Assembly: GCA_041749955.1 (NCBI GenBank)
Contig: JBGTAI010000146.1
Location: 7,751 to 71,750, forward strand
Length of the DNA: 64,000 bases
Direction: 5' to 3'
Origin: Pirellulaceae bacterium
Lineage (GTDB): Bacteria; Planctomycetota; Planctomycetia; Pirellulales; Pirellulaceae
Shown: positions 21,162-56,625 of the stretch, piece after piece
How the letters are laid out: each line of letters begins with the position of its first letter
Position numbering within the stretch: position 1 is the stretch's first letter
Position numbers and translations under genes: made by a program
Notes under the pieces: generated by a model
The model's database searches: none
What the model was told of the DNA's origin: nothing
Seen by the model: only the letters and a program-made list of their open reading frames with translations

Positions 21162-21187
21162 ATTTCGTAATCAGTTCAAGTTCGTAA

Positions 21188-25990: not shown

Positions 25991-28900
25991 TTAGGTAATG
26001 GAGCTCATGATTTGGTCCACTAGATTGCGGAAGTTGGCAAACTCTTGTTGTATCAGAGCGGCGTCTGAATTGACGAACGTGAAGTCTTCTTGTCCGCCAA
26101 AGAACCGAACCGATCGACCATCAGCACTCGCAACAAAATGGTTGCTGTCCAGTCGGGCTGTACGTGCCACATTGTCTTGACCAATGATCGTCAACAAAGC
26201 CGCATCACGTGTCGCGTTCAAGGTAAACTCAGCAAACTTCACGTCAGTGAAACCTTCGCCCATGCTCACAAAGTCTTGAGTCCCGGTTGCACTAAGCGAT
26301 ACCGTCCCGCCTTCGCGACCACCATTGCTCATAGCCAAGATCTCCGCATTCGACGCGAGATAGCTCGTTGTCAAGAGATCAAGGTAAGCGATACCTGAAC
26401 CCGCAGCACCTGTGCTTCGAGTTCCATAAGCGGTGAAATTAATACCGCTCCTAGTCGATCCGCCTGGCTCAGCAATCGTGATGACCATACTGCCGTTTGG
26501 CGTGCCATCAGAACCAGCCGTACCAGCGATGTCGCGACCGTAAACAATGGTCTCAGGGATCACATAAGAGACCGTATAAGTACCAGGTGGCAGGTTGGTA
26601 AACTCATAGGAACCGTCCAACTCTGTAAACACAGTGCGACTGATCGTTTGGTTGATTGCGTTCGCACTCGCGGCAGACTCCAACCGAATTGCAACACCAC
26701 CGAGTGCTGTCTCATCAGCTGACTTGATTCCATCACGAACTGGTGTTGCTCCACCAATCACAGCCGAAAGATTCATGATCGTATCAAAGAATGCCGCACC
26801 GCGAATCGTCGATGGGTTGAAGTCTTGAACGTTCACTGTGGCAGTAGCCGTCGCCGTCGCACCACCAGCATCACGGATGGTATAGGTAAATGTCACCGTA
26901 CCAATAGCGCCGGCCGGGGCGGTCAAGTTTACGGCAGTACCATCCGCTGTCGGTGCAACAGTTGCGTTGCCACTGGTCAAGGTAGCCGCAGTTACGGTGA
27001 GAGTTTGGGTCTCGCCACCACCCGCGTTATCGTTGACAAGCACGTTCAAACGTGTCGTCGCACCCGCAAAGGCCATCAAGTTTGGATCATTCGTCGCCAC
27101 AGGAGCATCGTTGATGCCCGTGATTGTGATCGTGGCTGTGGCTGGTGTTGAGCCGCCATTGCCGTCTGTCACGTTGTAACCGTAAACAACAACAGCACTC
27201 TGTCCACCAGTCAGGGAGTTGTAAGCCGAAGGCGTGATGCTCAACGAGTTACCGTTTTGCACGATACCAGCGGCATTGCCAGAGGTGAGCGTGAGATTCG
27301 ATACCGCAAGAACGTCACCGGTATTTGGGTCTGATGCATTTGCGAGCAAGTTAACCGTAGTCGCAGCATCATCCTCAGTGACAGTACGAGTCACTGGCCC
27401 CGACACAACCGGTGGCTGATTCGTCACTGGAGGATCGGTGATCGTGCCAGTCGCAGCTGCCGCGGTCGAACTCACAACATAAACACCACTATTCGGGGTA
27501 ATTGTAAGAACAACGGTTTCATTCCCCTCAGTCAGAGTGTCCGCAGTAGGGTCCACAGTGACAGTCGCTGTGGCCGCACCCGCCGCAAACACAACACTCG
27601 TGCTTGTTCCGGTGTAGTCCGTACCAGCGGTTGCAGTACCACTCACTGAGTAATTAACCGTTAACGCCGAGGCATTGCTTCCGCCAGTTCGCGTGAAGGT
27701 ATAGACCAAGTTCGGCGTACCATTCTCAACAACGCTACTTGGACTGACTGCCACGCTAATCGTGGATGGTCCGAAATCGTCATTCGTAATCGTGCCCGTG
27801 GCCGCACTTGTTCCAACGGTGTAGACCGTAGCATTTGGGCTAATGGTCAAAACAACCGTTTCGTCACTTTCAACCACCGTATCTGCGGTCGGATTGACTG
27901 TAACAGTCACCGAGGAGGCACCCACCGGAATCACAACGCTTGTGCTCGTCCCAGTGAAGTCAGTGCCGGCTGTTGCGGTGCCGCTCGTCGTGTAATTGAC
28001 AGTCAACGCCGAAGTCGTGGCACCAGTTCTCGTGAACGTGTAAACCAAATTGGCCGCCCCGTCTTCGGTGACGCTCGCTGGACTAACAGCGACGCTGACC
28101 GATGGCAACGCTACGTCATCATTCGAAATCGTACCTGTAGCCGATCCTGCTGTTCCGCTTACAGCGTAAACACCGGCGTTGGCTGTGATAGTAAGCACCA
28201 CGGTTTCGTCTGGTTCGACTGTGGTGTCAGCTGTCGGATCGACCGTGACGGTAGCGGACGCTGAACCAGCAGGAATTACCACGCTCGTGCCAGTTCCGGT
28301 AAAGTCACTCGTCGCCGACGCTGTACCGCTAGTGGCGTAGTTAACCGTCAACGCGGAGGTTGTAGCACCAGTGCGTGTGAACGTGTAAACCAAATTAGTT
28401 GCTCCGTCTTCCGTCACGCTAATAGGACTGACAGCAACACTGATGGTTGGCAGCCCCTCATCATCCGTGATCGTTCCTGTCGCAACCCCGGCAGTTCCGC
28501 TCACCGTATAAACAGCAGTGTTAGCGCTGATCGTTAGCACCACGGTTTCGTCACCTTCGACGGCAACGTCAGCAGTCGGATCAACCGTGACGGTCGCTGA
28601 TGAAGCACCCGCTGGAATCACAACACTCGTGCTGGTCCCCGTAAAATCAGTACCGGCCGTTGCAGTGCCAGTCACCGCGTAGTTAATCGTCAACGCCGAG
28701 GTCGTCGCACCTGTTCGAGTGAAGGTGTAAACCAAGTTGGTAGCGCCATCTTCGAGCACGCTGGCTGGACTCACCGCGACGCTGACAGTCGGCAAAGCGA
28801 CCACTGCATCGTCATCCGTGATGGTCCCGGTCGCTGAACCGGCTGTCGTGCTCACGCTGTAAACTGCTGCATTGGCAGTAATCGCCAACACGACCGTTTC

Positions 28901-30538
28901 ATCACTCTCTACAGCCGTGTCAACCGTTGGATCGACAGTGACTGCGACCGAGGAAGCACCAGCTGGAATCGTTACGCTCGTGGAAGTACCGGTGAAGTCC
29001 GTTCCGGCGGTAGCCGTACCAGTCGTCGTATAATTGATCGTTAAAGGATCAGTCGTTGCGCCGGTTCTTGAGAACGTGTAAACCAAATTAGTAGCGCCAT
29101 CTTCAAGCACGCTGGCTGGCGAGACATTCACACTAACGGTTGGAACTTGGCTGACGCCAATTGCCGAGATTGTGAACGATCCAGTCGATGCATTGATCAA
29201 GACATCATCTTGAACGAGCGTTGTACCAGCACCACCTGGATACAACAAAATGGCTTCAACGTCTTCAGCCGGATTCAGCGAAATACTGAGGTTGCTGACT
29301 GGAGCGGTGAATCGCACGGGAATGCTGAATGCATCCACGGGCTCAACCAGAAAGTCGAACTGAGACTGGCCCGTGATACCGTCAGCAACCACGCGTCCCA
29401 GGACACCGACCTCGTTGAACGCGTCCGTCGTTCCATTTGGGTCAAACGTTCCAAAGCTACGTGAGTTGTAGAACTCGCCGTTCGTGTTCCCAGCATCATC
29501 AGTGAAATTCCGGCTGCGAACATCAAAGGACGACGGTAGCGCAGCACCGTTGATTGATCCGTCAGGATTAAATGGTGCAGCAGTTCGAACATCAACCGGG
29601 TCTGTCGTTCCACCAATCACAGGGTTAGGCAAATTCAATCCGCCCAAGTTCAAATCGCGATAGGCGATCTGGAGAATCGGTTCAGCAGGTGGATCACCAG
29701 CAGCCACCGTACGTGTCAGATTCGTGACGCGAAATTGTGACGAGTTATATCCAAGTTGAATCAGAGCTTGAGAAACCTCGAAAACACCACGGTTAAAAAA
29801 GTTGTTCCGCGTGATCGTTACTGGTGCAGGAATTGTTGTTTGACCCGGCAAAGGAGCATCTAAGCCGAATGTGAACGATCCCGATTGGCCAGACACATTG
29901 AACGCAGAATCAAACGTCAATGTCTGCAGCTCAGTCAACACAGGCTGAAGAACGCCAGACTGACTCAATGTGATGTCGGTTGAAATTTGGAACGCACCTA
30001 AAGCCTGGCTATCGGGCGTACGCAAGTCAGCGTAGGAAAGCTCCAAGTAGAAAATGTCGCCGACATTAACCGTGTAATCTCGGATACCTGCGTTGGTTCC
30101 AGTTGGCGTGATGGTTGTATCGGTGGAGCTTCTTGGCTCCAAGAACAGCTCAACCTTTTCGCCAACTCCTTCGCCCAGGTTCATCGCATTGATGACGGCT
30201 AAGGCATCGGCAGCTGTAACAACGTGGTCAGCATTCACATCGACCATCGCAGAAACGCCCATTCCCTGAGTGATCCTTGTTCCGCTTCCATGCAGATTCA
30301 AGAAGTTGATCACCGCCAATGCGTCATTCGCAGTAATTGCACGGTTTTGGTCAACGTCCTCCGCGTCCAAATAATTGTGCGCCAATGCAATATCGCCAGC
30401 GAGCAACTGTCGCTTCTCCAAAGGCTCGCCCCGAAGTCGTCGCGACTTGTCTGAGCGGCTTTTTTGGCTGTTTCTGGTTCGATTTGAATCGGAACTCAGC
30501 CATCCAGAGCGACGAAGTAATTGGCGCAGATTTTTCAT
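25991..30538 (-). CDS. Large extracellular protein: basic LExR leader, N-terminal dockerin pair, 5x Calx-beta, cadherin/VCBS-like region, SdrD-B/CarboxypepD_reg-like domain
   Basis: 1515-aa uninterrupted ORF. Motifs: RRLRGEPLEKRQLLAG; DVDQNRAITANDALAVINFLN and DVNADHVVTAADALAVINAMN; five repeats of the type VSPASV.EDGATNLVYTFTRTGATTSALT.NY...GTATAGTDFTG; GINDAPVATND; DGSYEFTNLPPGTYTVSYV. Confidence 0.9.
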   Translation of the reverse strand: MKNLRQLLRRSGWLSSDSNRTRNSQKSRSDKSRRLRGEPLEKRQLLAGDIALAHNYLDAEDVDQNRAITANDALAVINFLNLHGSGTRITQGMGVSAMVDVNADHVVTAADALAVINAMNLGEGVGEKVELFLEPRSSTDTTITPTGTNAGIRDYTVNVGDIFYLELSYADLRTPDSQALGAFQISTDITLSQSGVLQPVLTELQTLTFDSAFNVSGQSGSFTFGLDAPLPGQTTIPAPVTITRNNFFNRGVFEVSQALIQLGYNSSQFRVTNLTRTVAAGDPPAEPILQIAYRDLNLGGLNLPNPVIGGTTDPVDVRTAAPFNPDGSINGAALPSSFDVRSRNFTDDAGNTNGEFYNSRSFGTFDPNGTTDAFNEVGVLGRVVADGITGQSQFDFLVEPVDAFSIPVRFTAPVSNLSISLNPAEDVEAILLYPGGAGTTLVQDDVLINASTGSFTISAIGVSQVPTVSVNVSPASVLEDGATNLVYTFSRTGATTDPLTINYTTTGTATAGTDFTGTSTSVTIPAGASSVAVTVDPTVDTAVESDETVVLAITANAAVYSVSTTAGSATGTITDDDAVVALPTVSVAVSPASVLEDGATNLVYTFTRTGATTSALTINYAVTGTATAGTDFTGTSTSVVIPAGASSATVTVDPTADVAVEGDETVVLTISANTAVYTVSGTAGVATGTITDDEGLPTISVAVSPISVTEDGATNLVYTFTRTGATTSALTVNYATSGTASATSDFTGTGTSVVIPAGSASATVTVDPTADTTVEPDETVVLTITANAGVYAVSGTAGSATGTISNDDVALPSVSVAVSPASVTEDGAANLVYTFTRTGATTSALTVNYTTSGTATAGTDFTGTSTSVVIPVGASSVTVTVNPTADTVVESDETVVLTISPNATVYTVGTSAATGTITNDDFGPSTISVAVSPSSVVENGTPNLVYTFTRTGGSNASALTVNYSVSGTATAGTDYTGTSTSVVFAAGAATATVTVDPTADTLTEGNETVVLTITPNSGVYVVSSTAAAATGTITDPPVTNQPPVVSGPVTRTVTEDDAATTVNLLANASDPNTGDVLAVSNLTLTSGNAAGIVQNGNSLSITPSAYNSLTGGQSAVVVYGYNVTDGNGGSTPATATITITGINDAPVATNDPNLMAFAGATTRLNVLVNDNAGGGETQTLTVTAATLTSGNATVAPTADGTAVNLTAPAGAIGTVTFTYTIRDAGGATATATATVNVQDFNPSTIRGAAFFDTIMNLSAVIGGATPVRDGIKSADETALGGVAIRLESAASANAINQTISRTVFTELDGSYEFTNLPPGTYTVSYVIPETIVYGRDIAGTAGSDGTPNGSMVITIAEPGGSTRSGINFTAYGTRSTGAAGSGIAYLDLLTTSYLASNAEILAMSNGGREGGTVSLSATGTQDFVSMGEGFTDVKFAEFTLNATRDAALLTIIGQDNVARTARLDSNHFVASADGRSVRFFGGQEDFTFVNSDAALIQQEFANFRNLVDQIMSSIT
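27434..29143 (-). repeat. Five tandem in-frame Calx-beta domain repeats (aa 466-1035, period about 112-117 aa / about 345 nt)
   Basis: Repeat starts are at aa 466, 583, 697, 812 and 924 (PTVSV/PTISV/PSVSV/PSTISV). By eye the nucleotide copies are diverged, not identical. Confidence 0.85.
30176..30358 (-). other. Dockerin-type repeat pair (aa 61-121 of the 1515-aa protein)
   Basis: Two 22-aa EF-hand-like repeats of the form DVxxxxxxTAxDALAVINxxN. Confidence 0.7.
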
Positions 30539-33412: not shown

Positions 33413-33578
33413 CGGTTGACGGAAGTCGCACAATCCTAAGACTCCCAAACTAGTGAGATGTTTCCCGTAATCGGCAAAAACTTGCCAAACGGTAACGCCG
33501 CCTAGTTATCTTACGTCCCGCGACGCAACGGTGACGGAAAAATCACCGCTGCCGAAGTCAGAATGTCGTGCCGAAGCT

Positions 33579-39500: not shown

Positions 39501-42500
39501 AGCGATGTTCCCGCCAGAATCAAGTTCTGTACCGTCAGCTTCGAGGAAGTAGTTGAAATACAACACAGGTTCATCGGCGGCTGCAAAACCCTCTAGACTG
39601 AACGCATTGCTTTGAACCACTCCCTTTGCCCCACCGGGGAAGTTGTAATGGTCTTCGACCAATGTCCCGTCAACTCGTGGATTTGATACAACTCCGTTGC
39701 CCGTGAAATTAACGGGTTGCTCTGCTGAACTTGGGTAGTTTCCAAAAAACGCATTCGCTTCATAGGTAAATGCCAAACTGGAGCCGCCGAGAACCGTCGT
39801 GGTCGAACCATCAGCAGCAACGCCTCGAGATCCCGTTCCCGTAGCATTAATACCGTGACCAGGGTCGGCACCACGTTGCCCCGTAACATGGAACAAGTTG
39901 TAGCTAAGCGTGCTAAAGTCCAAACCTCGAGCACCACCAATTCCTGTTGAGATCATTGAGCGACCACCAGCAAAAATGGGCTGCAATTCACCCGCAGTGT
40001 TAAACGCGTAGATGTCGCCATTAGCAGTCATGCCAAACAGTGTTTCTCGAAGTTCACCGTCGTTGTAGCTGACCGGCCCAGATCGCAAACTTGTGAAGTT
40101 GAGACCAATTAGGTCCGTTGCTGTACGAACGTAAGTTCCAACCGAACCATCACGGACCGTTCGCAGCTCGCCTGCGGATACGCGGAACAAATCACCTGTA
40201 TTGGTAATCGCATAAAGCGAAGTCACTCCGTTTTCGGTCACCAACTCGGCACCGGTCACCGTTCCACCCACTGCACCACCGGACGGTATGCCGCCAGCGA
40301 CAAGTGAATTATTTGGCGAAAAGACATTGCTGATGAAGCCACCAACAATACTCAACGACTTTCCGCTTGGCTCAACATTGGCTGATAATGTGCCACCACC
40401 GTTCGCTTCGATCGCAGCTGCCATTCTCGCAGCAACAACGGCTTCAGTGTCACCAGGGAAAATCAGAATTTCGATGCTACCAGGGTTTGCAAGACCGGCC
40501 TGGCCGGTAACGCTCAAGCCACCACCAACTGCGGGATTAACCACAACGGTTTGTGAACTCGGAAGAGCTAGTTGATTGCCATCCGAAACTACCGATATCC
40601 CTTGACTGCGAATCGCGGCGGCGAGTCGACTAACCAACAGTTCGGCGCTAATTGTTTCCGAAACATTCACACCCACCGCGCCAGGAGTGGTTATTTGATT
40701 GTCGCCTAACGTCGAGATGCCAGCACCAGTAACTGTCAACTGTGGAGTAACGGGTCCCGTGAACACAACCTGATCAAGAACAGATCTCGCATTAATTCCG
40801 GTCATGAGCAAATTGATATTCGCGGCTAGCGAGGCAGCGACTTGGTCCCCTGTAAGCGGCTGACCAACATTGTTGAGCGTCTGAATCGCCACATTGCCCA
40901 AACGAGCCGTACCCGTCCGAACAAACTCGAACGTTTGAACTTGCCCGTCGAGCCCGACAACCCGAACCGTCGAACCCTCGGTCAGCGTTCCAACCGGCTG
41001 TGCGGGGGACAACTGCAAACGCTCGCCCGTGTTGAATTCAAAGACCGTGTTGTCGATCGTCACGGTTTGTCCGTCGAGAATCGGATTGAGACCATCCGCA
41101 GTTAACGTTAGCCCCGAATTGAATTCGAATGTAACCGAGTTGTTGTTATTGTCGGTAAGGGTAAAGCTGTCCTCGTCGGAGAGACCGGCAACGCGTTGGC
41201 CAGCAGCGTTTGTGACCGTAGGAGCCTTAATACCCAACTGAGTACTTAAAGTCTGTTGAGTGCCTGTGAAAATCTGGCCGACTTCTTGAACACTTGTGCC
41301 AGCACCATTGAGCCGAGTGAGAAATACGTTTTGCGGGCCGTTTGCTATGCCCGACTGGGGAACAAACTGATAAAGAATGTTCGTTGTGTACTGCGATCCT
41401 GCGTTACTGTTAATTAGATCGAATGGTCGATTGGCGACAAAGAACCCGCGTTCAATTCCATCAAATGCTGCGATCGTTGTCGCTTCGACGTCGAGTCCCG
41501 TATTGCCAACTCCGACCGTAAACACGTTGTTCACCGCGTCGAAAACCGCACTAAACGTATTGATATTCGCACCGGTGCTGAGCGGTGCACTGAGTGCTGC
41601 CGTACCGGTATCAATCTGGTAGTAGAACCAGTTATTGTCCGAACGCTGACGATTCCCGAAACCGCTGTACGAGAACAACTCACCATTGCTTCGGAAAGCA
41701 ATTTCCTCAATCTCTTCTCCGTTAGAGAACGTCCCTACCGAGCCATAGTTCTCTCCCGTGAATGGGTTCACGATGAACAGACTCGATCCAGTGTTCACGT
41801 ACAACAATTGATCATCGAAGCTGTATGGGATGATCGAGTTGTCATCGAACAGTAACGGAATCGTCGGGTCACTCGCCGTGCCACCGCCAGACGAACCAAT
41901 TCGGTCTTCAGCAATTCTTCGAACCGAGTCAATCGGTTCCAAACGCAACAGCGGGTTCAGCGATCCAGCATTGAAGAACTGGTCAAGCGGCAATGGCACC
42001 TGCTGTTGGTTGGCGACAGCGACGAAATAGGTACCTTCTCTTAATTCAGCAGCACCAATATAAGGATCTTGAGTACCGGCACTACCGCGAGACAAATCAG
42101 TCGAATCATTGCTGCCGGCTTGACCGGATTGGTCATCAGCCACATTGCTGTCGCCTCCAACGAGTACCAACTGGCCAGCTTCGTTGAACACATACAACGC
42201 CATGTCAGCACGAGCGAAGTTATCTGCATAGTCAAGGTCAAAAACCGTTGACAAATACAAGGCCGCGTTATCCCGTGTGATGTTGTCATACGAAATCGTG
42301 AATCGGTACCAATCGACGTCCGTTAGCGAATTGAGTGAGCCAGCGAAAGATTTGGCCAGTTGATCGCTTTGAAGTGGCCCCACGGCAATCGCATTCGCGT
42401 CATTCGCAACACCAAAGAAGCCTAATGGTTGCGCAGTAGCGAGTGAATCGTTCGGTGCAGCAGTCTCATAGTCTTCGCCCAATAACGGCGAATGTAGCGG

Positions 42501-45500
42501 TTGGCCAATCACCTGGATGCCATTTACCGCGTAGCGAATATCGCTCAAACGCACTTGCGTGCCCGGCGACTCGTCGGCTTCCTGCAACCGGATCTGCAAC
42601 TCGTACCTTCCAGATGTCAAACCGTCGCGGACTCGGCTCGCATCGACAATTGCACCAAAATTGGTCGAATTCGTCGTATTACTGCTACGCACACGAACGT
42701 GATAGATATTGCGAGTGCCCGCTTCCCCTGGCAACACGATACGCATACCAGCGTCTTTCGCGTTCGATGAATAGGCGTCCTGCAGTTGCGAAGTAAACGT
42801 GATCGCCGCTACCGTTGGATTCGGAATTGTAATTCCGAGAACACCAGTCGAATCGACACGCACTAACGGAGCTTGCCGACCGACAAAGAAGTCTGCGTCA
42901 AACCGCAACTCAATTACAAAGTCATCGCCCGCACGCAGTACCACTGCTGAATTATTGGGATCCGTCACGCGTGCGTCGCGACGTTGTAGCGTCGCAGTAA
43001 CAGGACCAAGTTCGGCTCCGAATTGAGTCTCGAGTGCTGTCTCAATCGCCAGAGCAGGATCCGCCAAGAAGGTATCCACTCCGATGGTTATCGTATCCAA
43101 AGACCCAGCGATCGAAAGGGTCAGAACTCCGCCCGTTGAATCAACGATCGTCTCGTTAATTGTGATGCGTTGCCCTTGAAGCCGCTCCGCGACAACCGAT
43201 AGCGGTTGCGCAATGTCAACATCGACACCTGCAACTGCGGGGAAGTTTGCATTCGGATAAAGTCCCAACGAACTCGATTCACCAGCAAGTGAATCGTTGG
43301 ACGCAGCGAGAACGCGACCGTTCACATCGATCAACTCAACAATTGAATCCAATCGATTGCTCGTGCGGTCGATGTCCAACCACACTTCCGTACCGCTTTC
43401 GCCGATGAACGAATAAACGTCAATGTCATCATTGGTCGCGATCACGCCATCGACAATGAAACCAAGACGACGGTTCTCGTCACCGCTCTGCTGGTTTGGT
43501 GCAAGTTCGCCTAAGAACTCAGATTGAGTCGGAATCGAGTTTGTATCAACGACACTCGTACGAGTCGGCTCCTGCTCAGTAAACGCAGCAACATTACGAT
43601 CGTCGGCGCCTTCGCGAATCGTGACACCGTTCCAATTGCCACCCGTCACCGAATTTGGGACCGTTCCAAAAGTCTCAGCGATTACCTCCAAATTCGTAGT
43701 GATCGTTGCCGACGTTGCGGTAGGATCAATCAGCCAAGCCAATGCAGACGTTAGAATACCAGGACCGTAATTAGGGTTGGGAAACCTAGCGTCATTCAGC
43801 AGCGGGACACCAGCAGCGATGGTTCCATTCGGGACAAACGGCAGATTAAACACCGGCGGCGTAATGAGCTGGGGGAAATCATCCGCAATCCAACCTTCAT
43901 AGGATGCACCATTCAGCCCTGGGCCACCTGTAAACGCACCATACTGGCGGAAGCCGATTTCTTCTGGCCCATCCAAAACTGTTATTCGGAAATCATCAGC
44001 TCCAGGTGTACCCTCCGTGAAAAGGATGTCACCCGAGTCCGTTCCAATGATAGGATCGTAGTAGTTGATAAAGCGTAAGTTACCGAGCGGCTGATCGCTG
44101 CTAAAGGTGACCTCCGAGACTAAATCTGGTCGTCCGTCTTGGAAAGACTGTGTCATCACCCAATTGATTGTGCCGTTTGCTCCCGCGAAGGAACCTGTGC
44201 TGACAACACGGTCGTCGGACACAAGTGTCGGCTGTTGCAAAATCGTTGTTGTGTCCAATCCTACTGCAGCGCCGTCTGCACCAACATCAATAAAGAACCC
44301 ATAATCAAACAACGAAGTTTGGTTCGTGAAGAGTTGTGTCAATCCTTGAACGGTTGTCGTGGCTTGCTGGAGAACACCACCAGGTCCGGGTGAAAAAGAG
44401 AATGAGCCTGCAATCAGTGGATCAACGTCGTTATCAATCAAGGTACCGTTGTTAACTTCTGGTCCGATCGGAAACAATGGACCTTGGCTGCCCGCAAGAT
44501 CGCCACCAACAATTCCGTCATTGTTCGTGTCCAGCTGAGGACGGCCATCGAGTGTAAATCCAGCTCCCGCAAAATCGTCTGCAAGCGTAGTGAGGACAAC
44601 AGGAAAATCGGGGTGACCGATAATCTGAAGTGAGCCGCCAATTCGGTCGGCGATGTCGCGGAATTGATCACCGGCACCCAACAGCGAACCACCAACAACG
44701 ATACCTGCGGTTTCACCTGGTGCATTTTCAAATTTGACAACCAAACTTCCGCGACCGTCGCTTCGGAGTCGCAACCCTCCGTACACGAACTGATTCGGAA
44801 TTTCGATCGACTCGGTGACCACGTGGACAATATCCACATCGTCCCAAACGCCCGCCGTCGCGAGTTGGCCACCGCGAACTTGTAATCCGTTGATGCCATT
44901 GTTGGTGAGCGAGTTACCCAAAATGAATGGGCCGGAGTTTCCAAACACGTCGGTTCGATCGATCAGCCCGGTTGAGCGTCCTGGATCAGTCACTTCAACC
45001 GATGAGAGTGAGTTCACATCGAAGGACAATGCTGGGCCAACTCCGCCAATGAAGTTGTTGTCGATCACGACTGGCGTCGACGCACGAACAAACACGGTTC
45101 CGGAAGCGTTATCACCACGGCCTACACGAGTATCGTTGGTGGCCCCTCGGCCATCCGCATTAAATTCGAGCCTGCTATTGGCAATACGAAGCGTGCCTTG
45201 GTGCAATTCAACCGCGTTAAATGACGCGAAGCCGCCTTCGATACGAGTCGTTCCACCACCGCCAGCCACGACGACATTGTCTAGGCTTGCTGCCGAACCG
45301 ACACCAATGTAGATGCCGCCCCAATCACCACGGAGATCTTCGGGTGCGGGAGCTGCTTCAACACCGACATTATTGGTGTCGAATGTTCCGCCGCCACCGT
45401 AGCGTTGATCTTCGAGACTGGTGAAAATAATCGGATTTGACGGTGAACCTTCGGCGAGCAAATTAGCTCCGAAACGAGCCTCAATCCGAGCACCGTCAAT

Positions 45501-48500
45501 TTTCAAAACAGTGCCTGGATCAATCGTCAAACTGGAGTCGAGTCGACTTCGGAGCGAAGCGCCTGTGCTTGAAAGCGGTGTGGTTCCAACAGCGAGTCGA
45601 TCGACAAAACTCGTGCTACTCGCATTAAGCTGAGCGACCAACAGGAATTGGCCGGGCAAACCATTGGTATCAACAGTCGCTCGATACAATCTTCGCGATA
45701 CGAATCCACTACCCGACGCTGGAGTAGGCAACTGAGAAAGTTGAACTCCTCCAACCGTAGTCAACGTGACTGGCAAAGTGGCCTGACTCGACGCAGATTC
45801 GATACCTGATCCATCAACGTTGGTGATGCGGTAGACGTATGTGCCGACAGGAACACTTCCAGCCGTTGTCACGGCTGAACGAACGAGCAAAGACGATGGC
45901 GCGGAGGATTGGATGATCGGTCCACCAGGCGTACCGTCAATGACCAAATTTTCAGTCAATATGTGCGGAATGTCAGTATCGTCAAACCGTGCCGTCGTGC
46001 CGATCGTTTCGAGTTGATTACCAGTTCGGGTGAGCACGCGAATGAACAAACCATTCAGGCTATTATCAATGACGGTATTGCCGTGAATTTCAGGACCGAC
46101 ACGGTCATAATCTGGAGTGAACGCGCCGCCCGCTTGGAAATTGGCTTCTGTGAATCGTGTTTCTGCGAACGTGTCTGGCGAAGCAGACATTGCGGCGTCC
46201 GCACTCAACGAGATTTGTGAGTTGATAATCGTTGGGCGTGTGACGGCCATGTCAATTGGCGAGATAGGAACCTGGCGTCCACCAATCGAAACCGCACCGC
46301 CACCGTAACGCATATCAGCGAACTGGATGTGGTTGAGGAAGACGCCTTCGTCTTCGCGGTTGCGTCGAAGCTCATCGGCAGTATCCAAGTCACCGCGGAA
46401 ATCGATCCCGCCCCAGTCACCAGGCTGCGGCGTCGGAGTGAAGGCTGGTGCGTTGCCAATACCAACCGTGCGATCATTGACACTTGTAAAAATAACGCTT
46501 CCGGGGATAAGTGCATTCGTAGCGTCACGAGCTGGCAAACCCGTTGAAGTAATAATCGTAGGTGTACCAAGCACTTGCAGCGCACTGTCGCTGTGATCCA
46601 CCAATGGTGACGTGCTTCCCACGCCCAGCCGAGCCCGGCTAAATTTCAAAATGGCGCCGGAGTCGATCACCATTCGAACGCCCTGAGGCAAGTCGATCGT
46701 CGAACCATCTTCCAACGGAAGGCCGTTATTAGCGAATCCGATGTTATAGGCGAGGTTGTCGACTAAGGTTTCGATACGATTGTCTGCCCCACCATTTCCA
46801 ACCACACGAATCGTATCACCAGGCCGCGCTGCGGCGATCGCTAAATCGATTTCACGATAGGGATTGGCGACCGTACCGATTTGTCCGCTGGACACAGCGC
46901 TCGCAGCCTTATCGACATAGAGCGTATTGTTTGCATCTGCAGGCACGAACCAAAAATCAAAGACACCGCCGGGGCGTCCGTCACCATCACCGTCCAATGC
47001 AACGCCCGTCGTGTCACGCAATACATTTCCGACGCTGGGGCGGAAATCCAATCGCAACTCATATTCACCTTCGCTGCGACCACCGAAGCCAGTACCGCTA
47101 ATCGACGGATCATAGCTTGTGTTGCCTTTCGCGCTGACACCGACGACATAGGTGCCTGCTTCAACCTGAACGTCAATCAATGAGTCATTGCTGAAATAGT
47201 CATCGTTGATCGCCAGTTCAGTGCTGCTTCCATCAGCATTCAAGCGATAGAGCCGTAGCGTTGTATCAAGCAAGCTCGGCGCACCAAGTCGCTCAGCAAT
47301 CGTTTCAATCGCCAACCGCCCCGAGGAATCCAGCGTGAACTTATAAAGGTCCACGTCGATGCTATCAGGTCGGAACAGATATTGGCCATTAACAATATCG
47401 GCAGCACTCGGGTACGACGGTTCACTTTCCGTTCCAGGAGTAAAGATGAACGCAGTGCTTTGCGTAACCGGCTGGGTCAAATCATCTGCATATCCGTAGC
47501 CGAGCAACTGGCCCACGACAAACATGGCTCCGCGAAAGAACTCGCCACCGAATTGGTCATCAATCGACTCATCAAAATCTTGGAAGTCCAAAACACCCAA
47601 ATCTTGAACTCCGTCGCCATCGCGGTCACGAAGCGCAACAGCAATGTTATTGGGATCGTTCGGATTGTTGGGGTTGAACGGCCCACTATTAACAGCAGTC
47701 TCACCTGCTTCGACGGTTCCGTACAAATCGCCCACCGCGATTGAGAAGAAGGCATCGCTTGTGAACTCACCTTCGACTTCAACAAATTGCACACCGAGGT
47801 ACTCGCTGTACAGTTGCAACACTTCTCGCACACGCTGGCGTTGCTGCTGGCTAATGACGTTAAAATAAGTCGTGTCAGCAATCACGCCAGGACGACTCGG
47901 GTCATCTCCAAGCCATGAAGACGCAAAGTTGTATTGAATAACCGAAATGCCATCGATCACATCCGCGCCACCACGCACGTAGTCCAACGGCACCGTCCGA
48001 GTGAGTCGCGATGGATCGTCGGGGCGGATGTTGCGAGTACCAGCCAAATCAGGCCCCGGAAGGTCCAATCCAAATGGCGTCGGATTAAAAATCTCACTGC
48101 TCAGTCTCGCAGACTGAGTCGCCGAGGCACCAATGTTCCACTGCGTATTGAGATCAAATGCGGTACTGAAACTGTCACCAGGCTCAATTGGGTTACTTGG
48201 GTTCGCGTTCAGATTTACCAACGTCGGCGGGGCAGGCAAGTTCTCGGTTGTACCGACTCTCAAACGTGCCGAACCCGTCAAGAATTGCCCCGGTGCGTTC
48301 GGGTTTGGAATTCGCGAAAGCGGGCGACCAAAGTCGAGAGTCGCCACATTGGTGATGCTGTTGTAAGTAACGCTCGTCGGTCTCAAACCGGGTGTATTCA
48401 GACGAGTAAAGTCGTCAAGATTTGTCGCCGTGTCGTTCGTCATAATCAGCTGATAGAAATCAGGATTCTGAGCTAACGTGGGATCCAAATCGTCGTCGTT

Positions 48501-49823
48501 GAAGTGGACTTCGATCTTACCAACATCTGGCGAAATTGAACCATTGGCATTACGACGAATCGGCTCTGGGACGACGGCAACGACTTGTGGCCCGAGGTTC
48601 AAGTTGAACTGACGCGTGAAGCTCACTCCGTCTTGGAAAAGCTCACCATTCACATTGCTGAGCGCCAACGGCCCACTACCCAAAATGTCGATCTGGTAGG
48701 TGTCGTCCGGTAGCGGCTGTGCAAATCGGAAAACAACCTCTCGAGGCGAGTCCCCCAAACCGATGAACCCTGGCTCAACGACAATATCGCCGACACCACT
48801 TAGAGTCAGCGGCGAGTAGTTTGATGGCAATTCATTGCCGATTACCGTATTCGCGCTGCCCACTTCGACAGCAGCACTAATCAAGCTCGATGCATCTGGA
48901 TTGTTTTGGATCGCCGTCAAGAAATCAGTAACGGTGGACTCGTTTCCAGGTGAACTGTTGAGCTGAACACGAATCGTCTTGTCAGTGACAACAACGACTG
49001 GATTAGCGACACCACCAAAATTGCGCTGCTCAAACGTGAGCTGAATGCCACGACCGTCTGCACCAGGCAATTGGGACGTCAAACGAACACGCACTTGTCC
49101 GCCTGTACCAAAGTCGGTCAATGCTTCTGCGGCGTTCGCTCCTTGAAGCGTTAACGTTGTTCCCGAAGTCACCGTTGTCCCGATGACTGCTTGCGACGCG
49201 CCACTGACCTGAATGACTTCGATGAGCGAGTTTGCCGCAGCATTGTTTGCTACCGCTGAAAGCAAGTCGGCTACGCGCGTCGGATTCTGGCTTGTCGGAT
49301 TGACGCTTCTATTGGCGCGATTGACATCGATGTTGACCGTACGTCCGGAAACCGTGATGCGTGCGGACGGATCATTTCGGTCGGACGTTGTAAAGACAAC
49401 CTGAATGCCGTTGCCGATCGTTCCAGACTGCTTTGCTCGGAACTCCAGCAATACTTGTCCACTGGTACCAAGATCCGTCGTTGCTGATGCTGACTCAAAC
49501 GCGTTATCGTCGCCCGCACGTGTGATACGAATCGCCGATAGAGTTGCTTCGTCAAGCGTCGTATCATCGTCAAAGCGAAACACCAACTCATTCGGCGCAA
49601 CGTTGAGTACGGTCACACCAGTGGCGTTGAGATTAGGCTCAAACAGTAACTGACCTTCATTGGGTTGAATACCAATGAGCTGTGGCCCAGCCATGAGGTG
49701 CCGCGTTTCGAGCGACTCCAAAAGCGAACGACGATCTTGACGTCGCTTCTTTCTCAATCGATCACGCAGGCCCCATAGGCTTGAACTGAATTTGGACTGC
49801 GATTGAGGTTTGCGGAAGGTCAT
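33579..49823 (-). CDS. Giant extracellular multidomain protein (5414 aa): LExR leader, Ig-like modules, degenerate metzincin-like module, PPC-like domains, parallel beta-helix regions, repeated FEF-type modules, GEVED domain, C-terminal dockerin pair
   Basis: Single uninterrupted 16,245-nt ORF with an ATG start. Motifs are listed in the sub-features. PPC-like signatures: DVDLYKFTLDSSG, DIDVYSFIGESG, DVDWYRFTIS. Beta-helix-like repeats: NTRFLFNTNYGVDISH, SNIFAYNGNGGIQI. Confidence 0.9.
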   Translation of the reverse strand: MTFRKPQSQSKFSSSLWGLRDRLRKKRRQDRRSLLESLETRHLMAGPQLIGIQPNEGQLLFEPNLNATGVTVLNVAPNELVFRFDDDTTLDEATLSAIRITRAGDDNAFESASATTDLGTSGQVLLEFRAKQSGTIGNGIQVVFTTSDRNDPSARITVSGRTVNIDVNRANRSVNPTSQNPTRVADLLSAVANNAAANSLIEVIQVSGASQAVIGTTVTSGTTLTLQGANAAEALTDFGTGGQVRVRLTSQLPGADGRGIQLTFEQRNFGGVANPVVVVTDKTIRVQLNSSPGNESTVTDFLTAIQNNPDASSLISAAVEVGSANTVIGNELPSNYSPLTLSGVGDIVVEPGFIGLGDSPREVVFRFAQPLPDDTYQIDILGSGPLALSNVNGELFQDGVSFTRQFNLNLGPQVVAVVPEPIRRNANGSISPDVGKIEVHFNDDDLDPTLAQNPDFYQLIMTNDTATNLDDFTRLNTPGLRPTSVTYNSITNVATLDFGRPLSRIPNPNAPGQFLTGSARLRVGTTENLPAPPTLVNLNANPSNPIEPGDSFSTAFDLNTQWNIGASATQSARLSSEIFNPTPFGLDLPGPDLAGTRNIRPDDPSRLTRTVPLDYVRGGADVIDGISVIQYNFASSWLGDDPSRPGVIADTTYFNVISQQQRQRVREVLQLYSEYLGVQFVEVEGEFTSDAFFSIAVGDLYGTVEAGETAVNSGPFNPNNPNDPNNIAVALRDRDGDGVQDLGVLDFQDFDESIDDQFGGEFFRGAMFVVGQLLGYGYADDLTQPVTQSTAFIFTPGTESEPSYPSAADIVNGQYLFRPDSIDVDLYKFTLDSSGRLAIETIAERLGAPSLLDTTLRLYRLNADGSSTELAINDDYFSNDSLIDVQVEAGTYVVGVSAKGNTSYDPSISGTGFGGRSEGEYELRLDFRPSVGNVLRDTTGVALDGDGDGRPGGVFDFWFVPADANNTLYVDKAASAVSSGQIGTVANPYREIDLAIAAARPGDTIRVVGNGGADNRIETLVDNLAYNIGFANNGLPLEDGSTIDLPQGVRMVIDSGAILKFSRARLGVGSTSPLVDHSDSALQVLGTPTIITSTGLPARDATNALIPGSVIFTSVNDRTVGIGNAPAFTPTPQPGDWGGIDFRGDLDTADELRRNREDEGVFLNHIQFADMRYGGGAVSIGGRQVPISPIDMAVTRPTIINSQISLSADAAMSASPDTFAETRFTEANFQAGGAFTPDYDRVGPEIHGNTVIDNSLNGLFIRVLTRTGNQLETIGTTARFDDTDIPHILTENLVIDGTPGGPIIQSSAPSSLLVRSAVTTAGSVPVGTYVYRITNVDGSGIESASSQATLPVTLTTVGGVQLSQLPTPASGSGFVSRRLYRATVDTNGLPGQFLLVAQLNASSTSFVDRLAVGTTPLSSTGASLRSRLDSSLTIDPGTVLKIDGARIEARFGANLLAEGSPSNPIIFTSLEDQRYGGGGTFDTNNVGVEAAPAPEDLRGDWGGIYIGVGSAASLDNVVVAGGGGTTRIEGGFASFNAVELHQGTLRIANSRLEFNADGRGATNDTRVGRGDNASGTVFVRASTPVVIDNNFIGGVGPALSFDVNSLSSVEVTDPGRSTGLIDRTDVFGNSGPFILGNSLTNNGINGLQVRGGQLATAGVWDDVDIVHVVTESIEIPNQFVYGGLRLRSDGRGSLVVKFENAPGETAGIVVGGSLLGAGDQFRDIADRIGGSLQIIGHPDFPVVLTTLADDFAGAGFTLDGRPQLDTNNDGIVGGDLAGSQGPLFPIGPEVNNGTLIDNDVDPLIAGSFSFSPGPGGVLQQATTTVQGLTQLFTNQTSLFDYGFFIDVGADGAAVGLDTTTILQQPTLVSDDRVVSTGSFAGANGTINWVMTQSFQDGRPDLVSEVTFSSDQPLGNLRFINYYDPIIGTDSGDILFTEGTPGADDFRITVLDGPEEIGFRQYGAFTGGPGLNGASYEGWIADDFPQLITPPVFNLPFVPNGTIAAGVPLLNDARFPNPNYGPGILTSALAWLIDPTATSATITTNLEVIAETFGTVPNSVTGGNWNGVTIREGADDRNVAAFTEQEPTRTSVVDTNSIPTQSEFLGELAPNQQSGDENRRLGFIVDGVIATNDDIDVYSFIGESGTEVWLDIDRTSNRLDSIVELIDVNGRVLAASNDSLAGESSSLGLYPNANFPAVAGVDVDIAQPLSVVAERLQGQRITINETIVDSTGGVLTLSIAGSLDTITIGVDTFLADPALAIETALETQFGAELGPVTATLQRRDARVTDPNNSAVVLRAGDDFVIELRFDADFFVGRQAPLVRVDSTGVLGITIPNPTVAAITFTSQLQDAYSSNAKDAGMRIVLPGEAGTRNIYHVRVRSSNTTNSTNFGAIVDASRVRDGLTSGRYELQIRLQEADESPGTQVRLSDIRYAVNGIQVIGQPLHSPLLGEDYETAAPNDSLATAQPLGFFGVANDANAIAVGPLQSDQLAKSFAGSLNSLTDVDWYRFTISYDNITRDNAALYLSTVFDLDYADNFARADMALYVFNEAGQLVLVGGDSNVADDQSGQAGSNDSTDLSRGSAGTQDPYIGAAELREGTYFVAVANQQQVPLPLDQFFNAGSLNPLLRLEPIDSVRRIAEDRIGSSGGGTASDPTIPLLFDDNSIIPYSFDDQLLYVNTGSSLFIVNPFTGENYGSVGTFSNGEEIEEIAFRSNGELFSYSGFGNRQRSDNNWFYYQIDTGTAALSAPLSTGANINTFSAVFDAVNNVFTVGVGNTGLDVEATTIAAFDGIERGFFVANRPFDLINSNAGSQYTTNILYQFVPQSGIANGPQNVFLTRLNGAGTSVQEVGQIFTGTQQTLSTQLGIKAPTVTNAAGQRVAGLSDEDSFTLTDNNNNSVTFEFNSGLTLTADGLNPILDGQTVTIDNTVFEFNTGERLQLSPAQPVGTLTEGSTVRVVGLDGQVQTFEFVRTGTARLGNVAIQTLNNVGQPLTGDQVAASLAANINLLMTGINARSVLDQVVFTGPVTPQLTVTGAGISTLGDNQITTPGAVGVNVSETISAELLVSRLAAAIRSQGISVVSDGNQLALPSSQTVVVNPAVGGGLSVTGQAGLANPGSIEILIFPGDTEAVVAARMAAAIEANGGGTLSANVEPSGKSLSIVGGFISNVFSPNNSLVAGGIPSGGAVGGTVTGAELVTENGVTSLYAITNTGDLFRVSAGELRTVRDGSVGTYVRTATDLIGLNFTSLRSGPVSYNDGELRETLFGMTANGDIYAFNTAGELQPIFAGGRSMISTGIGGARGLDFSTLSYNLFHVTGQRGADPGHGINATGTGSRGVAADGSTTTVLGGSSLAFTYEANAFFGNYPSSAEQPVNFTGNGVVSNPRVDGTLVEDHYNFPGGAKGVVQSNAFSLEGFAAADEPVLYFNYFLEADGTELDSGGNIAGRDALRVYVVTQDGAQHLVSSNKTARGGGAFDDEFDDPTPVGQYNDNIDVDVQQLFTSTNTWRQARVPLGEFAGMPGLSLRVEFSTAGTTQTGSASLRTKAGDQLVEGQSFVIGGETFSIDFAPTVSLPTGAQLANLYSDPNATATITVDGQQYVLDDGRRVIGNGQISIPLLGGLPAGTSLAALSASEIAAIVTDAIRISPPTNPVVSGLLFSDAQDADPNAGGGRNDRTFEAIALPYSGGNMTFVGVGQLGNDRNFGDLDDPRILALDVVNTNDVDMLRVEVVAGTVLKVDLSTVGSIPIQGTIRFFDEFGIEIPASVLDTNSATLQVPSSGTVFIGISGQPNTAYDPRFGTNQSPGQIGKYQASVAVNLPLSIQADSNAIELGGLANVQASPSSLFSISGQSNVLGIPVPVSRFMSANEVAGALRQVVADRFTNGNVSVLPIDGASLRLPLLTIDDVGPFVDESERWGDQFASGVRGGAIANDFEGVYLDDFIIGFAERGEIATGSNVVDTPFVQDLRPQFPSPADPTSSLNTGSYQVEIRDASEYLNSQTASAFRTFDTNDRLADSRSVVVRGADQIRDGQTFEITDGRATVVFEFDLTESGTGVTPGNVAVPFTLSALVPGSQRINATTGLPIAGTGVVRPQTAAEVAASVVAAVNRSDVASVLAVSALLASGVDSDTDARINLAGDIVVVDDSGAFESIDRSTRRGDTNRDRDGQGVILIENTRFLFNTNYGVDISHDVTANVAGVDTNSILRYPRNLVELNSESIIPGVVVQSNIFAYNGNGGIQIAGLQAAGETQSDPIPFERIVNNTIVGGSITAGFTAPSETFQGVFFPGGAISFADAVVSYTPNATGRPPASIFQNATTALGAPDRLGRGSEPVDGQFTVSLGLGGSLVVEFTDNLLTGSGDSRPDLIVFETGDVESVQVQVSRDGITFFTVGILGGLTNQIDLDAAGFGPQDRFAFVRLTDLRQGSTTSSSLGADIDAIGALTTVPVDRYTAGGNGINVVGQAAPALLNNVVANSDVGIVLPVGSTLPIVGGNAFYRNTLDVPAGASIGQFAQQLTSSESVFIAPAELVFSPSAGSRIIDSSIDSVEDRSSLTAVKNPLGLPTSPILAPRLDVNGQLRIDDPNVETPSGLGERVFKDRGASDRGDLFGPRAVLLSPTAPDLGLSAGVVSVFGEAPRAFEIQLLDGLAPADVTPGTGIDDRTVTSGSVLLFKDNVPLVEGIDYRFGYNPSTNVIRLTPIAGVFAREATYVIRLIDSSDAVISASDGSGYFDGTRLSVIDSSGVTTTFEYETGITIALSTILQTVGAADGLTLEVFDGVNTVIYELDDNGITGVDSIPVDVSGLPTVEEIGASIAAAINATGGLTLTAVTNGSNIQLLGANPLASVTSSSTLAAVSGAVGTAIGFGLQIPADGARPADTIVDGQVFVVRRGARTAFTFEFDNDNVISTTGAIPIRFSAVSTLDDIANEIVRAVGGTGLGLSPSNVGFGRVFLGGDANYSVDVTASVLTQVGIAGEVATVPITIQIDQSRASVAASIQSVIESLSLAGVTTSLINDRIFVEGTNGISGVGAVGSAVVADLVGNRLQSNQSNGKTELTIFIGNGFDFGDAPAPYQSLASGLRPRHAIDPTFTLGATVTPDADALVPNADEDDGIGIPVSMRAGFQSQLTINVNSVAGRAFYVDAWFDWNGNKLFDANEVIRYGSAGTGRIPLSTGVNIVPVTVPADAATGEIYARFRLSEPVFDANGLAVLLGPTGDAASGEVEDYSLFITNNPFTNPVRPGDVNNSGASTPLDALQIINVLNRYQSVDPNARTINLSDPLPPGFVLPVFPDVNGDGQISAADALAVIQILNQADANGASGEGELLTTGFVRTASGVLASQATLIGDALINGSSGADGLLREEVSLPSESAPKKAIDQSSVFDPRAIIELDSIVDLIAEDNASARLGADSSDSELNPFDAIFSQM
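33921..34130 (-). other. Dockerin-type repeat pair of the giant protein (aa 5232-5301)
   Basis: DVNNSGASTPLDALQIINVLN and DVNGDGQISAADALAVIQILN. Confidence 0.75.
34167..34664 (-). other. GEVED-type domain (aa ~5054-5219)
   Basis: FDFGDAPAPYQS ... EDDGI ... YVDAWFDWNGN ... ARFRLS ... SGEVEDYSLFI. Confidence 0.6.
34785..35657 (-). repeat. Cluster of three FEF-type modules (aa ~4723-5013). Further copies are scattered through the protein.
   Basis: DGTRLSVIDSSGVTTTFEYE / DGLTLEVFDGVNTVIYELDD...TVEEIGASIAAAINATG / DGQVFVVRRGARTAFTFEFDND...TLDDIANEIVRAVGGTG / SRASVAASIQSVIESL. Confidence 0.45.
47109..47381 (-). other. Pre-peptidase C-terminal (PPC)-like domain (aa ~815-905)
   Basis: DSIDVDLYKFTLDSSGRLAIE...LRLYRLNADGSSTELAINDDYFSNDSLIDVQVEAGTYVVGV. 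Confidence 0.5.
47424..48026 (-). other. Metzincin-like module with the zinc-binding motif apparently degenerated (aa ~600-800)
   Basis: VREVLQLYSEYLGVQFVEVEGEF..FFSIAVGDL resembles the N-part of M10/serralysin-type domains. FVVGQLLGYGY (47490-47522) aligns with HExxHxxGxxH, with G/L/G/G kept but H, E, H and H replaced by F, V, Q and Y. Confidence 0.3.
48789..49478 (-). repeat. Two tandem repeats of about 115 aa near the N-terminus of the giant protein (aa ~116-345)
   Basis: TDLGTSGQVLLEFRAKQSG..GNGIQVVFT...RTVNIDVN...RVADLLSAVANNAAANSLIEV aligns with TDFGTGGQVRVRLTSQLPGADGRGIQLTFE...KTIRVQLN...TVTDFLTAIQNNPDASSLISA. Confidence 0.6.
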
Positions 49824-56573: not shown

Positions 56574-56625
56574 CTCGCACGCATCCAACGACTCGCTCGA
56601 TAAACCCGTTGCAAGGAAAGTTACT

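Follow-up and report, generated by a model that had tools for sequence, protein, structure and literature searches.

The 64-kb window analysed here, a stretch of contig JBGTAI010000146.1 from a Pirellulaceae bacterium (64,000 nucleotides; assembly GCA_041749955.1), carries three intact co-directional minus-strand open reading frames (ORFs), referred to below as genes A, B and C, which together span 23,833 bp or 37% of the window and encode predicted extracellular proteins that each bear one pair of dockerin-type repeats (Table 1). An earlier sequence-only reading had described the locus in these terms, and the sizes, the gaps and the coverage were borne out by the ORF listing. The stop codon of B is separated from the start of A by 267 bp, and the gap between C and B measures 130 bp from the TTG codon of B or 166 bp from its first ATG. 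Translation of B probably begins at 33364 (MFRCF), since the closest orthologues begin MFRC/LF, giving a protein of ~852 amino acids (aa) and a 214-bp gap to C.

Table 1. Features of the A/B/C locus, in window coordinates
Feature	Position	Strand	Remarks
Gene C	33579..49823	(-)	5414-aa giant, predicted to be exported; no internal repeats; Cys 0/5414
C leader motif RRSLLESLETRHLMAG	49683..49739	(-)	aa 29-47, PF07595 type; Planc_extracel 20.3-21.9 bits
C matrixin (M10)-like metzincin domain	47388..48086	(-)	aa 580-812; catalytic residues lost
C PPC domain	47130..47357	(-)	aa 823-898; Pfam PPC 28.8-34.3 bits (cut-off 25.9)
C GEVED domain	34173..34436	(-)	aa 5130-5217; GEVED 43-48 bits (cut-off 24.4)
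C dockerin pair DVNNSGASTPLDALQIINVLNR ... DVNGDGQISAADALAVIQILNQ	33918..34130	(-)	aa 5232-5302; Dockerin_1 38.7-42.6 bits
Gene B	30806..33448	(-)	~852-880 aa (880 aa from TTG); metzincin-like domain and dockerin
B leader motif RRSRRLFTECLESRAMMAA	33263..33322	(-)	Planc_extracel 20.8 bits
B N-terminal alpha/beta domain	32393..33280	(-)	296 aa; motif HETGHIFWARDEY at DNA 32684-32722 and conserved S-I-M
B beta-sandwich region	31385..32458	(-)	Ig-like; carbohydrate-binding module (CBM)-like jelly roll; SdrD_B / CarboxypepD_reg 'X-module'
B dockerin pair	31169..31351	(-)	aa 700-760 of 880; Dockerin_1 42.5 bits
Gene A	25991..30538	(-)	1515-aa adhesin-like protein; N-terminal dockerin, Calx-beta and cadherin-like domains; Cys 0
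A leader motif SRRLRGEPLEKRQLLAG	30389..30445	(-)	Planc_extracel 24.3 bits
A dockerin pair	30176..30361	(-)	aa 60-121; Dockerin_1 33.2 bits
A conserved domain, fold unassigned	29099..30178	(-)	aa 121-480; ~40 loci
A Calx-beta x5, Cadherin_5, Big_9, SdrD_B	26516..29113	(-)	aa ~476-1341; Pfam 132.4, 56.8, 62.5, 35.4 bits
Stem-loop	25931..25965	(-)	Perfect 15-bp stem, 26 nt past A stop; terminator-like, weak U tract

Dockerin pairs and the search for a cohesin

A single dockerin pair per protein, N-terminal in A and near the C-terminus in B and C, had been proposed from the letters alone, and all three pairs score well above the Pfam gathering threshold of Dockerin_1 (PF00404, 22.9 bits). Dockerin_1 was also found in 22/22 of the B orthologues scanned. 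The six repeats of A, B and C all read D-x-[ND]-x-[DNS]-...-D with the calcium-ligand positions 1, 3, 5 and 12 kept, and the replacement of Gly6 by R and H in the two repeats of A leaves the ligand positions unchanged. The three proteins have one dockerin flavour in common, D-V-N-x-D-G-x-V-(S/T)-A/P-x-D-A-L-x-V-I-N. Identity between dockerins is 59-68% for orthologous pairs and 52-58% across the three proteins.

A strict dockerin-repeat pattern matched only A, B and C in the window and gave no matches in 20 shuffles. The same pattern was applied to 1.43 Mb of Pirellulaceae DNA, comprising 80 loci around B homologues (one genome per species, 10-kb flanks) that were searched by tblastn with A, B, C and their neighbours. 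All 226 strict repeats found there lie on the strand of B and inside homologues of C, B or A, so that dockerin genes are too sparse for three in a row to be expected by chance.

No cohesin gene had been recognised by the sequence-only reading, and the Pfam Cohesin family was not matched by any of 36 scanned ORFs of the window, a set that covers all those of at least 250 aa and most shorter non-overlapped ones. The same scan returned no LTD domain, no piece of C gave a Cohesin match at E <= 5, and the window contains neither an SLH nor a sortase anchor. No glycoside hydrolase, polysaccharide lyase or carbohydrate esterase domain was found in A, B or C, the nearest signal being the CBM-like folds in the structural model of B.

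Conservation of the three-gene order

More than 740 homologues of B occur in Rubripirellula, Novipirellula, Rhodopirellula, Stieleria, Pirellula and many metagenome-assembled genomes (MAGs), where they are named at most 'dockerin type I domain-containing protein'. Synteny in relatives had been singled out beforehand as a point on which the idea of a linked locus could fail, and it proved widespread: of 67 loci in which 3 kb or more upstream of B could be inspected, 55 have a C homologue immediately before B on the same strand, and 42/60 loci have an A-like gene downstream of B. In Rubripirellula reticaptiva, genes of 5371, 877, 1399 and 131 aa are followed by pyruvate kinase and a short-chain dehydrogenase/reductase (SDR), with the same order and Pfam content as in the window. 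Pyruvate kinase is present in 16/55 loci, and the C-B adjacency holds in 26 loci that lack it within at least 7 kb downstream, indicating that the C-B linkage outlasts local collinearity.

The three genes form a conserved modular cluster which is not obligatory. B stands alone amid unrelated genes in Pirellula loci, C-B is followed by unrelated genes without A in Aporhodopirellula, and one MAG has only B-A. Since B occurs without C or A and C-B without A, any receptor of the dockerins must be encoded elsewhere. No functional hint came from the genes next to a solitary B in one Pirellula locus, among them MoxR/DUF58 and ATP-grasp.

Leader and composition common to A, B and C

A motif of the type RRLxxExLExRxLLA is visible near the N-terminus of A, B and C. 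The sequence-only reading was right in assigning one leader to all three proteins; the leader, which it called unusual, corresponds to the known motif of Planc_extracel (PF07595). All three leaders score slightly below the Planc_extracel cut-off of 25.5 bits, and the family was matched in 18/22 B orthologues with E values down to 4.6e-6. The leaders are basic, with 13-15 Lys and Arg within the first 60 residues. No hydrophobic run of at least 6 residues occurs in the first 90 aa of A and C, and the only such run in B (LGVLGLC) lies upstream of the probable start. As cited in PMC8567305, the motif has been known since Studholme 2004; PF07595 is regarded as a putative planctomycete export signal, and proteins with related motifs were detected in envelope-enriched fractions of Tuwongella (T. 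immobilis) (PMC8567305).

The database entry for B (824 aa, 100% identical) is called from a later Met (MMAANP), which cuts off the PF07595 leader (window 33280-33448), and several further B orthologues in the alignment are likewise called without it. Leader-bearing proteins are probably under-annotated in these genomes.

The mature proteins are acidic (isoelectric point 4.05-4.28) and contain 0.2-1.2% Lys and no Cys, the three Cys residues of B being located in or before the leader. Over hundreds of kilobases of orthologous protein, Cys makes up 0.010% of C orthologues and 0.032% of 106 giant representatives, with 0.02-0.05% for B and 0% for the A domain; the other window ORFs have 1.46%. The extreme scarcity of Cys and Lys hints that the proteins may be exported unfolded, or that the extracellular milieu may impose a constraint.

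Behind their dockerins, C and B carry a G-E-G-E-like stretch and an acidic tail of ~110 aa that is predicted to be disordered (33582-33917 in C and 30809-31168 in B). The tail of C ends in the conserved motifs VSVFD... and ...DALFAxL, and B orthologues often end in (I/L)-S/P-E-P-F. These C-terminal tails may serve as a sorting or anchoring signal.

The giant protein C and its pseudo-matrixin domain

An exhaustive search with aa 1-1200 of C retrieved 1713 representative homologue clusters (50% identity) at E <= 1e-3, 752 of them at E <= 1e-30, mostly of 4-7.9 thousand residues, and on these matches C is assigned to a large family of giants. Orthologues of 5.2-5.5 thousand residues align over their length at 45-62% identity with hundreds of invariant columns. 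BLASTP of C against itself revealed no internal repeats.

The giant had been taken for a beta-helix/Ig adhesin. Two Beta_helix stretches reach 14-16 bits, below threshold, and Pfam gave no Ig match in C, so that this description is weakly supported; C does contain a PPC domain, preceded by a matrixin-like domain in degenerate form. The family profile of aa 580-812 matches MMP-1 (966c_A) at E 9e-7 as well as MMP-12, serralysin and karilysin, and Peptidase_M10 (PF00413) is matched in 15/23 relatives, with a best E value of 1.2e-9. The window's own segment, when scanned alone, has no Pfam match.

The zinc-site region reads AMFVVGQLLGYGY in C and its nearest relatives, and the family consensus is AMHEIGHLLGLGH..DLP. 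Where 12/23 relatives have HEIGHLLGLGH, C has FVVGQLLGYGY, so that F, V, Q and Y occupy the positions of H, E, H and H in HExxHxxGxxH and both the zinc ligands and the catalytic Glu are gone. The domain is accordingly classed, on its residues, as a predicted pseudoprotease and not as an active M10 member. A comparison of motif states across 54 relatives showed the degenerate form xxGQLLGYGY to be shared by about ten related representatives; such conservation speaks for selection on a pseudoprotease and against decay. Other branches of the C family have lost the matrixin site in different ways.

A further motif, PGxxDEPGHR(D/E)I, is located at aa ~588-598 (window ~48030-48060) and precedes the matrixin zinc site by about 170 residues. 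Relatives with an intact HEIGH mostly have this motif intact too, the clade without the site has altered versions of it (DLAGTR, DVPGVR), and several relatives with a degenerate site retain it. The motif may act as a prodomain 'switch' or belong to the active site.

The PPC and GEVED assignments of the sequence-only reading were upheld by profile searches, as was Calx-beta in A. PPC, GEVED and the dockerin are the only domains of C above Pfam threshold, and the ~4,000 residues between PPC and GEVED have none; at aa 2134-2184 a further PPC-like stretch scores 18.9 bits and stays below threshold. PDB sequence searches with both halves of C gave no match, and a profile built from 16 orthologues of the last ~3,590 aa retrieved nothing from the PDB.

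The metzincin-like domain and modules of B

Among the three proteins, HExxH occurs only in B (HETGH). The motif H-E-x-G-H-I-F-W-x-x-D-E-Y of B shows no variation across 120 homologues at H, E, G, H, F, D and E, and at least 90% of them keep I, W and Y. An S-I-M motif follows ~36 residues past HExxH, with S invariant and I and M present in at least 90% of the same homologues, and resembles the metzincin Met-turn. Metzincins that use Asp as third ligand, such as the snapalysin type (M7, HExxHxxGxxD) in MEROPS, have the same HExxHxxXxxD spacing. The conserved metzincin Gly is replaced in B by Trp.

The HExxH peptidase foreseen from the sequence is thus present as a motif, while no Pfam or NCBIfam family and no PDB sequence covers the conserved N-terminal 290 residues. 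Insignificant matches were obtained to the M6dom family TIGR03296 (E 0.074) and to Reprolysin_5 (3/22 orthologues, E 0.04). An AlphaFold model of the domain alone, built with 120 sequences, reached a pLDDT of 90.5 and a pTM of 0.87, and displays a beta-strand, a long helix, further strands and helices, the HExxH helix, a Met-bearing loop and a C-terminal helix. Its Foldseek search of the PDB returned ADAM17/TACE (many entries) and MMP9 on top, with E values of 0.09-0.5 and TM scores of 0.3-0.4, and no match at E <= 1e-3. As modelled, the domain appears to be a divergent, unclassified metzincin-like domain which is probably catalytic.

The full-length model of B is mediocre in the N-terminal domain and leaves it unresolved, its Foldseek matches being CBM and jelly-roll folds. 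Residues 319-676 are modelled with a pLDDT of 85-94, and Foldseek relates them to CBMs and to the Kgp adhesin domain. The module GxYxFxNLPxGTYxV, which the sequence-only reading had already seen in both A and B, was identified as an SdrD_B / CarboxypepD_reg beta-sandwich, scoring 35.4 bits in A (above threshold) and 22-25 bits in B (below threshold), yet detected in 20/22 B orthologues. In B it sits directly before the dockerin, and positions 602-733 of the B profile match the X-module-dockerin chain of the A. cellulolyticus scaffoldin ScaA as seen in its complex with cohesin (4wi0_B, 4u3s_B) at E 3e-4. The disordered tail behind the dockerin of B comprises ~115 residues.

At aa ~430-690 of B (window ~31380-32160), a CBM-like jelly-roll insertion of ~150 aa appears to divide the SdrD_B-like module into an N-terminal half with FxYLDxNxD...E..L.GV and a C-terminal half with GxFRFPNLPLGTYQL.

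Protein A

Calx-beta (PF03160) is matched in A across five stretches, which also retrieve the calcium-binding domains of the Na/Ca exchanger (NCX) from the PDB at E values of about 1e-5. The C-terminal ~170 aa are conserved. No RTX nonapeptide repeats (HemolysinCabind) were found in A, B or C at E <= 0.01 with Pfam, and no type I secretion system (T1SS) signal was detected in A.

Residues 121-480 gave no match in Pfam, for which 32 orthologues were scanned, or in a profile search of PDB sequences. Word-index homology searches with a single sequence and with the 32-sequence alignment came back empty, though the collection searched contains the exact A protein and tblastn gives ~40 orthologues, and these empty results are no evidence of absence. 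A cohesin-like nature of this domain, suggested by its sequence pattern, was tried and rejected: hhalign against three CipA cohesins, a thin alignment of three close sequences, gave a probability of 0.2%, in addition to the null results in Pfam and the PDB. As C and B keep their dockerins in genomes without A, A cannot be their only receptor.

Transcript signals and neighbouring genes

The hairpin behind the stop codon of A (RNA fold -29.6 kcal/mol, z -4.4; none of 200 shuffles folds as well) marks the 3' end of the three genes, ahead of a small conserved ORF. This leaderless 135-aa ORF (25478-25885, minus strand) lies directly downstream of A, occupies the same position in 29/55 loci and has a counterpart of 131 aa in R. 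reticaptiva. It belongs to no Pfam family and has a weak NCBIfam match to a glycosylhydrolase-like jelly roll (E 0.036).

The genes around A, B and C are housekeeping or typical planctomycete genes, among them pyruvate kinase, SDR, ROK, an extracytoplasmic function (ECF) sigma factor, PSCyt2/PSD1, DUF1501, tetratricopeptide repeat genes, a class II aminoacyl-tRNA synthetase, FliP/FliR/FlhB, a sulfatase, LeuA and PriA. A co-directional minus-strand run at 15603-21790 comprises an ECF-type sigma factor (21188-21790), two Pfam-less ORFs (19843-21161), a 951-aa PSCyt2/PSD1 protein and DUF1501, and is a typical planctomycete gene set. An unusual fusion is encoded at 52894-55374 (minus strand), where an 826-aa ORF joins a DNA-photolyase N-terminal domain to a flavin amine-oxidase / NAD-binding domain. 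On the plus strand at 55449-58805, fliP, with an N-terminal extension of ~160 aa, is followed by fliR and flhB and then directly by the sulfatase gene. A 276-aa ORF at 742-1572 (minus strand) has a below-threshold match to Peptidase_Mx, a putative zinc metallopeptidase family (23.1 vs 27 bits), and is unrelated to B. Rfam and tRNA scans of the 64-kb window gave no matches.

Interpretation

The features described above can be brought together in a reading in which A, B and C would be exported by one common route and displayed together on the cell surface, with the dockerins acting as a common calcium-dependent tether to a receptor whose gene lies elsewhere in the genome. Proteolytic activity would come from B, and C, with its dead protease domain and long body, would bind substrates or surfaces, as would A. 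As a whole, this picture of an exported, dockerin-tethered surface trio has about an even chance of being correct. Within it, a functional link between the three as an extracellular module is on considerably firmer ground than a physical complex held together by dockerins.

Several observations weigh against this picture. Scans of the window for promoter and terminator patterns gave counts at or below shuffle expectation and are uninformative on operon structure, and the 130-267 bp between the genes leave room for separate promoters. A is missing behind C-B in Aporhodopirellula and B stands alone in Pirellula. The scanned ORFs of the window include no Pfam Cohesin, and the binding of planctomycete dockerins to any partner is putative. 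Dockerin identity across the proteins of one genome exceeds that between genomes by just 2-4 points, which would be weak evidence for co-evolution with one receptor. The peptidase assignment of B consists of a motif, a model topology and Foldseek matches that are not significant (E >= 0.09).

The alternative with the best prospects, possible but clearly the less probable account, is that three independent secreted proteins are encoded here, the dockerin, like the PF07595 leader, being a generic planctomycete module for surface retention or associated with export that occurs on many unrelated proteins, and the adjacency resulting from ancestry, shared regulation or collinearity. The solitary B of Pirellula and the C-B pair of Aporhodopirellula fit this account, as do the greater resemblance of the dockerins to their orthologues than to their neighbours and the lack of a cohesin in the window; in close relatives, moreover, synteny extends to pyruvate kinase, the SDR and the small ORF, so that a part of the conservation is plain collinearity. 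Collinearity does not explain the C-B adjacency in the 26 loci without pyruvate kinase, however, and the flanks of the 80 loci contain no other dockerin gene, which makes three in a row unexpected for independent genes.

It is improbable that C itself is the scaffold, with cryptic cohesin equivalents in its ~4,000 unassigned residues (or in the 360-aa domain of A) binding the dockerins of B and A and with its own dockerin anchoring it to the cell. Scaffoldins typically carry a dockerin of their own. The C-B linkage is the tightest in the module, and the absence of Pfam-level domains outside the M10-like, PPC, GEVED and dockerin regions, together with the empty PDB search of the C-terminal profile, would leave room for such elements. 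On the other hand, Cohesin is absent from every piece of C even at E <= 5, C is devoid of internal repeats whereas scaffoldins have tandem cohesins, and B retains its dockerin in genomes without a nearby C-like gene. The domain of A fares no better as a cohesin, given its hhalign result and the dockerins kept by C and B where A is absent.

No less improbable is a purely structural role, in which the dockerin pairs are calcium-binding EF-hand modules that stabilise large extracellular proteins without a partner. Other calcium-binding modules abound in these proteins (Calx-beta, GEVED and SdrD_B, the last of which binds calcium in staphylococcal SdrD), weak EF-hand Pfam matches overlap the dockerins and no cohesin was found. 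A stabiliser would be expected to be scattered or repeated, however, and the occurrence of exactly one terminal pair per protein, in one conserved flavour across three unrelated architectures and with an adjoining X-module in B, argues for a targeting tag. A reading of the 16-kb ORF as a pseudogene in decay or as an artefact of assembly, for which only the degenerate protease motif speaks, is effectively refuted by its 5414 uninterrupted codons, by the 5371-aa orthologue in R. reticaptiva and the many representatives of 4-7.9 thousand residues, by the well-conserved orthologues of 5.2-5.5 thousand residues and by the selection apparent on the degenerate motif, in keeping with the intact gene assumed by the sequence-only reading.

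The picture of a dockerin-tethered surface trio can be extended to a cohesin-independent surface machine consisting of a fibre of 5.4 thousand residues with a dead matrixin domain as a decoy that captures substrates, an active peptidase of a new metzincin-like family and a Calx-beta adhesin, whose export by a non-hydrophobic PF07595 leader route would select against Cys and Lys and whose receptor would not be a recognisable cohesin. This extended version is speculative and rather doubtful. If true, it would amount to a genetically defined 'planctosome' for the capture and degradation of macromolecules, or for attachment.

Comparison with known systems

Planctomycete dockerins and the PF07595 motif have long been known. 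What the locus adds is a defined dockerin-tagged three-gene module that extends across the cultured genera Rubripirellula, Novipirellula, Rhodopirellula and Stieleria and gives a testable handle on the function of planctomycete dockerins and giant genes, as well as a large family of giant proteins in which the matrixin active site has been lost in several ways. In the literature searched, which was incomplete, no description was found of the Pirellulaceae trio, of the pseudo-matrixin domain of the giant or of the B-type domain. Giant genes occur in every planctomycete genome examined, with roles in adhesion and calcium binding predicted for some (PMC5177795, PMC12673574), and the 2025 review of the phylum leaves dockerins unmentioned and describes the roles of giant genes as only apparent (PMC12673574).

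The duplicated 22-residue calcium-binding dockerin at a terminus, one per subunit, is a feature shared with the cellulosome of Clostridia, and the X-module directly before the dockerin of B resembles the arrangement in A. cellulolyticus ScaA (4u3s, 4wi0). Unlike the cellulosome, the trio comes with no cohesin, tandem-cohesin scaffoldin, carbohydrate-active enzyme (CAZyme) module or SLH/sortase anchor in the window; its dockerins have the (S/T)-A/P-x-D-A-L-x-V-I-N flavour, its host is a planctomycete of the Gram-negative type and its cargo is peptidase-like and adhesin-like.

The 'planctosome' (Andrei et al. 2019, ISME J, PMC6461901) was put forward as a hypothetical planctomycete cohesin/dockerin assembly for peptide degradation, in which dockerin-bearing zinc metallopeptidases are tethered at the cell surface. 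It was proposed for freshwater Nemodlikiaceae and relies on classical signal peptides and on cohesins that are identifiable; the anchor protein has an LTD domain and the peptidases are of the M12B and M14 families. The trio belongs instead to Pirellulaceae and features the PF07595 leader, an unclassified peptidase domain and a pseudo-matrixin giant of 5.4 thousand residues, with neither cohesin nor LTD in the window. B, which combines an intact HExxH...D motif with a dockerin, is a candidate for a metallopeptidase of this kind, its peptidase family being unassigned.

Giant extracellular proteins with dockerin/EF-hand elements, proposed to act in attachment and the processing of surface polymers, are also found among the Omnitrophota, which like the planctomycetes belong to the Planctomycetes-Verrucomicrobia-Chlamydiae (PVC) group (bioRxiv 10.1101/2023.11.21.568195). 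Those giants exceed 30,000 aa, are highly repetitive, with dockerin and TSP3 repeats in large numbers, and are anchored in the membrane at the C-terminus, in contrast to C, which has a single dockerin pair, lacks internal repeats and has no anchor by prediction.

At the level of single domains, aa 580-812 of C are homologous to the catalytic domain of matrixins and serralysins (MEROPS M10) and are followed by PPC, with the difference that the zinc site HExxHxxGxxH is replaced and the domain is embedded in a protein of 5,414 aa. Compared with the Asp-ligand metzincins of the snapalysin type, B differs in having Trp for Gly, no significant sequence or structure match to a peptidase family, a domain of ~290 aa and a fusion to CBM-like modules and a dockerin, but its HExxHxxWxxD has identical spacing, a Met-turn-like S-I-M is present and the model shows a beta-sheet, backing and active-site helices and a C-terminal helix. 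A is set apart from the giant Calx-beta/cadherin adhesins by its PF07595 leader and N-terminal dockerin, its unique 360-aa domain and the lack of a detected RTX/T1SS signal, and resembles them in its five Calx-beta stretches, Cadherin_5, Big_9 (tandem-95) and SdrD_B modules and in its acidic, Cys-free composition.

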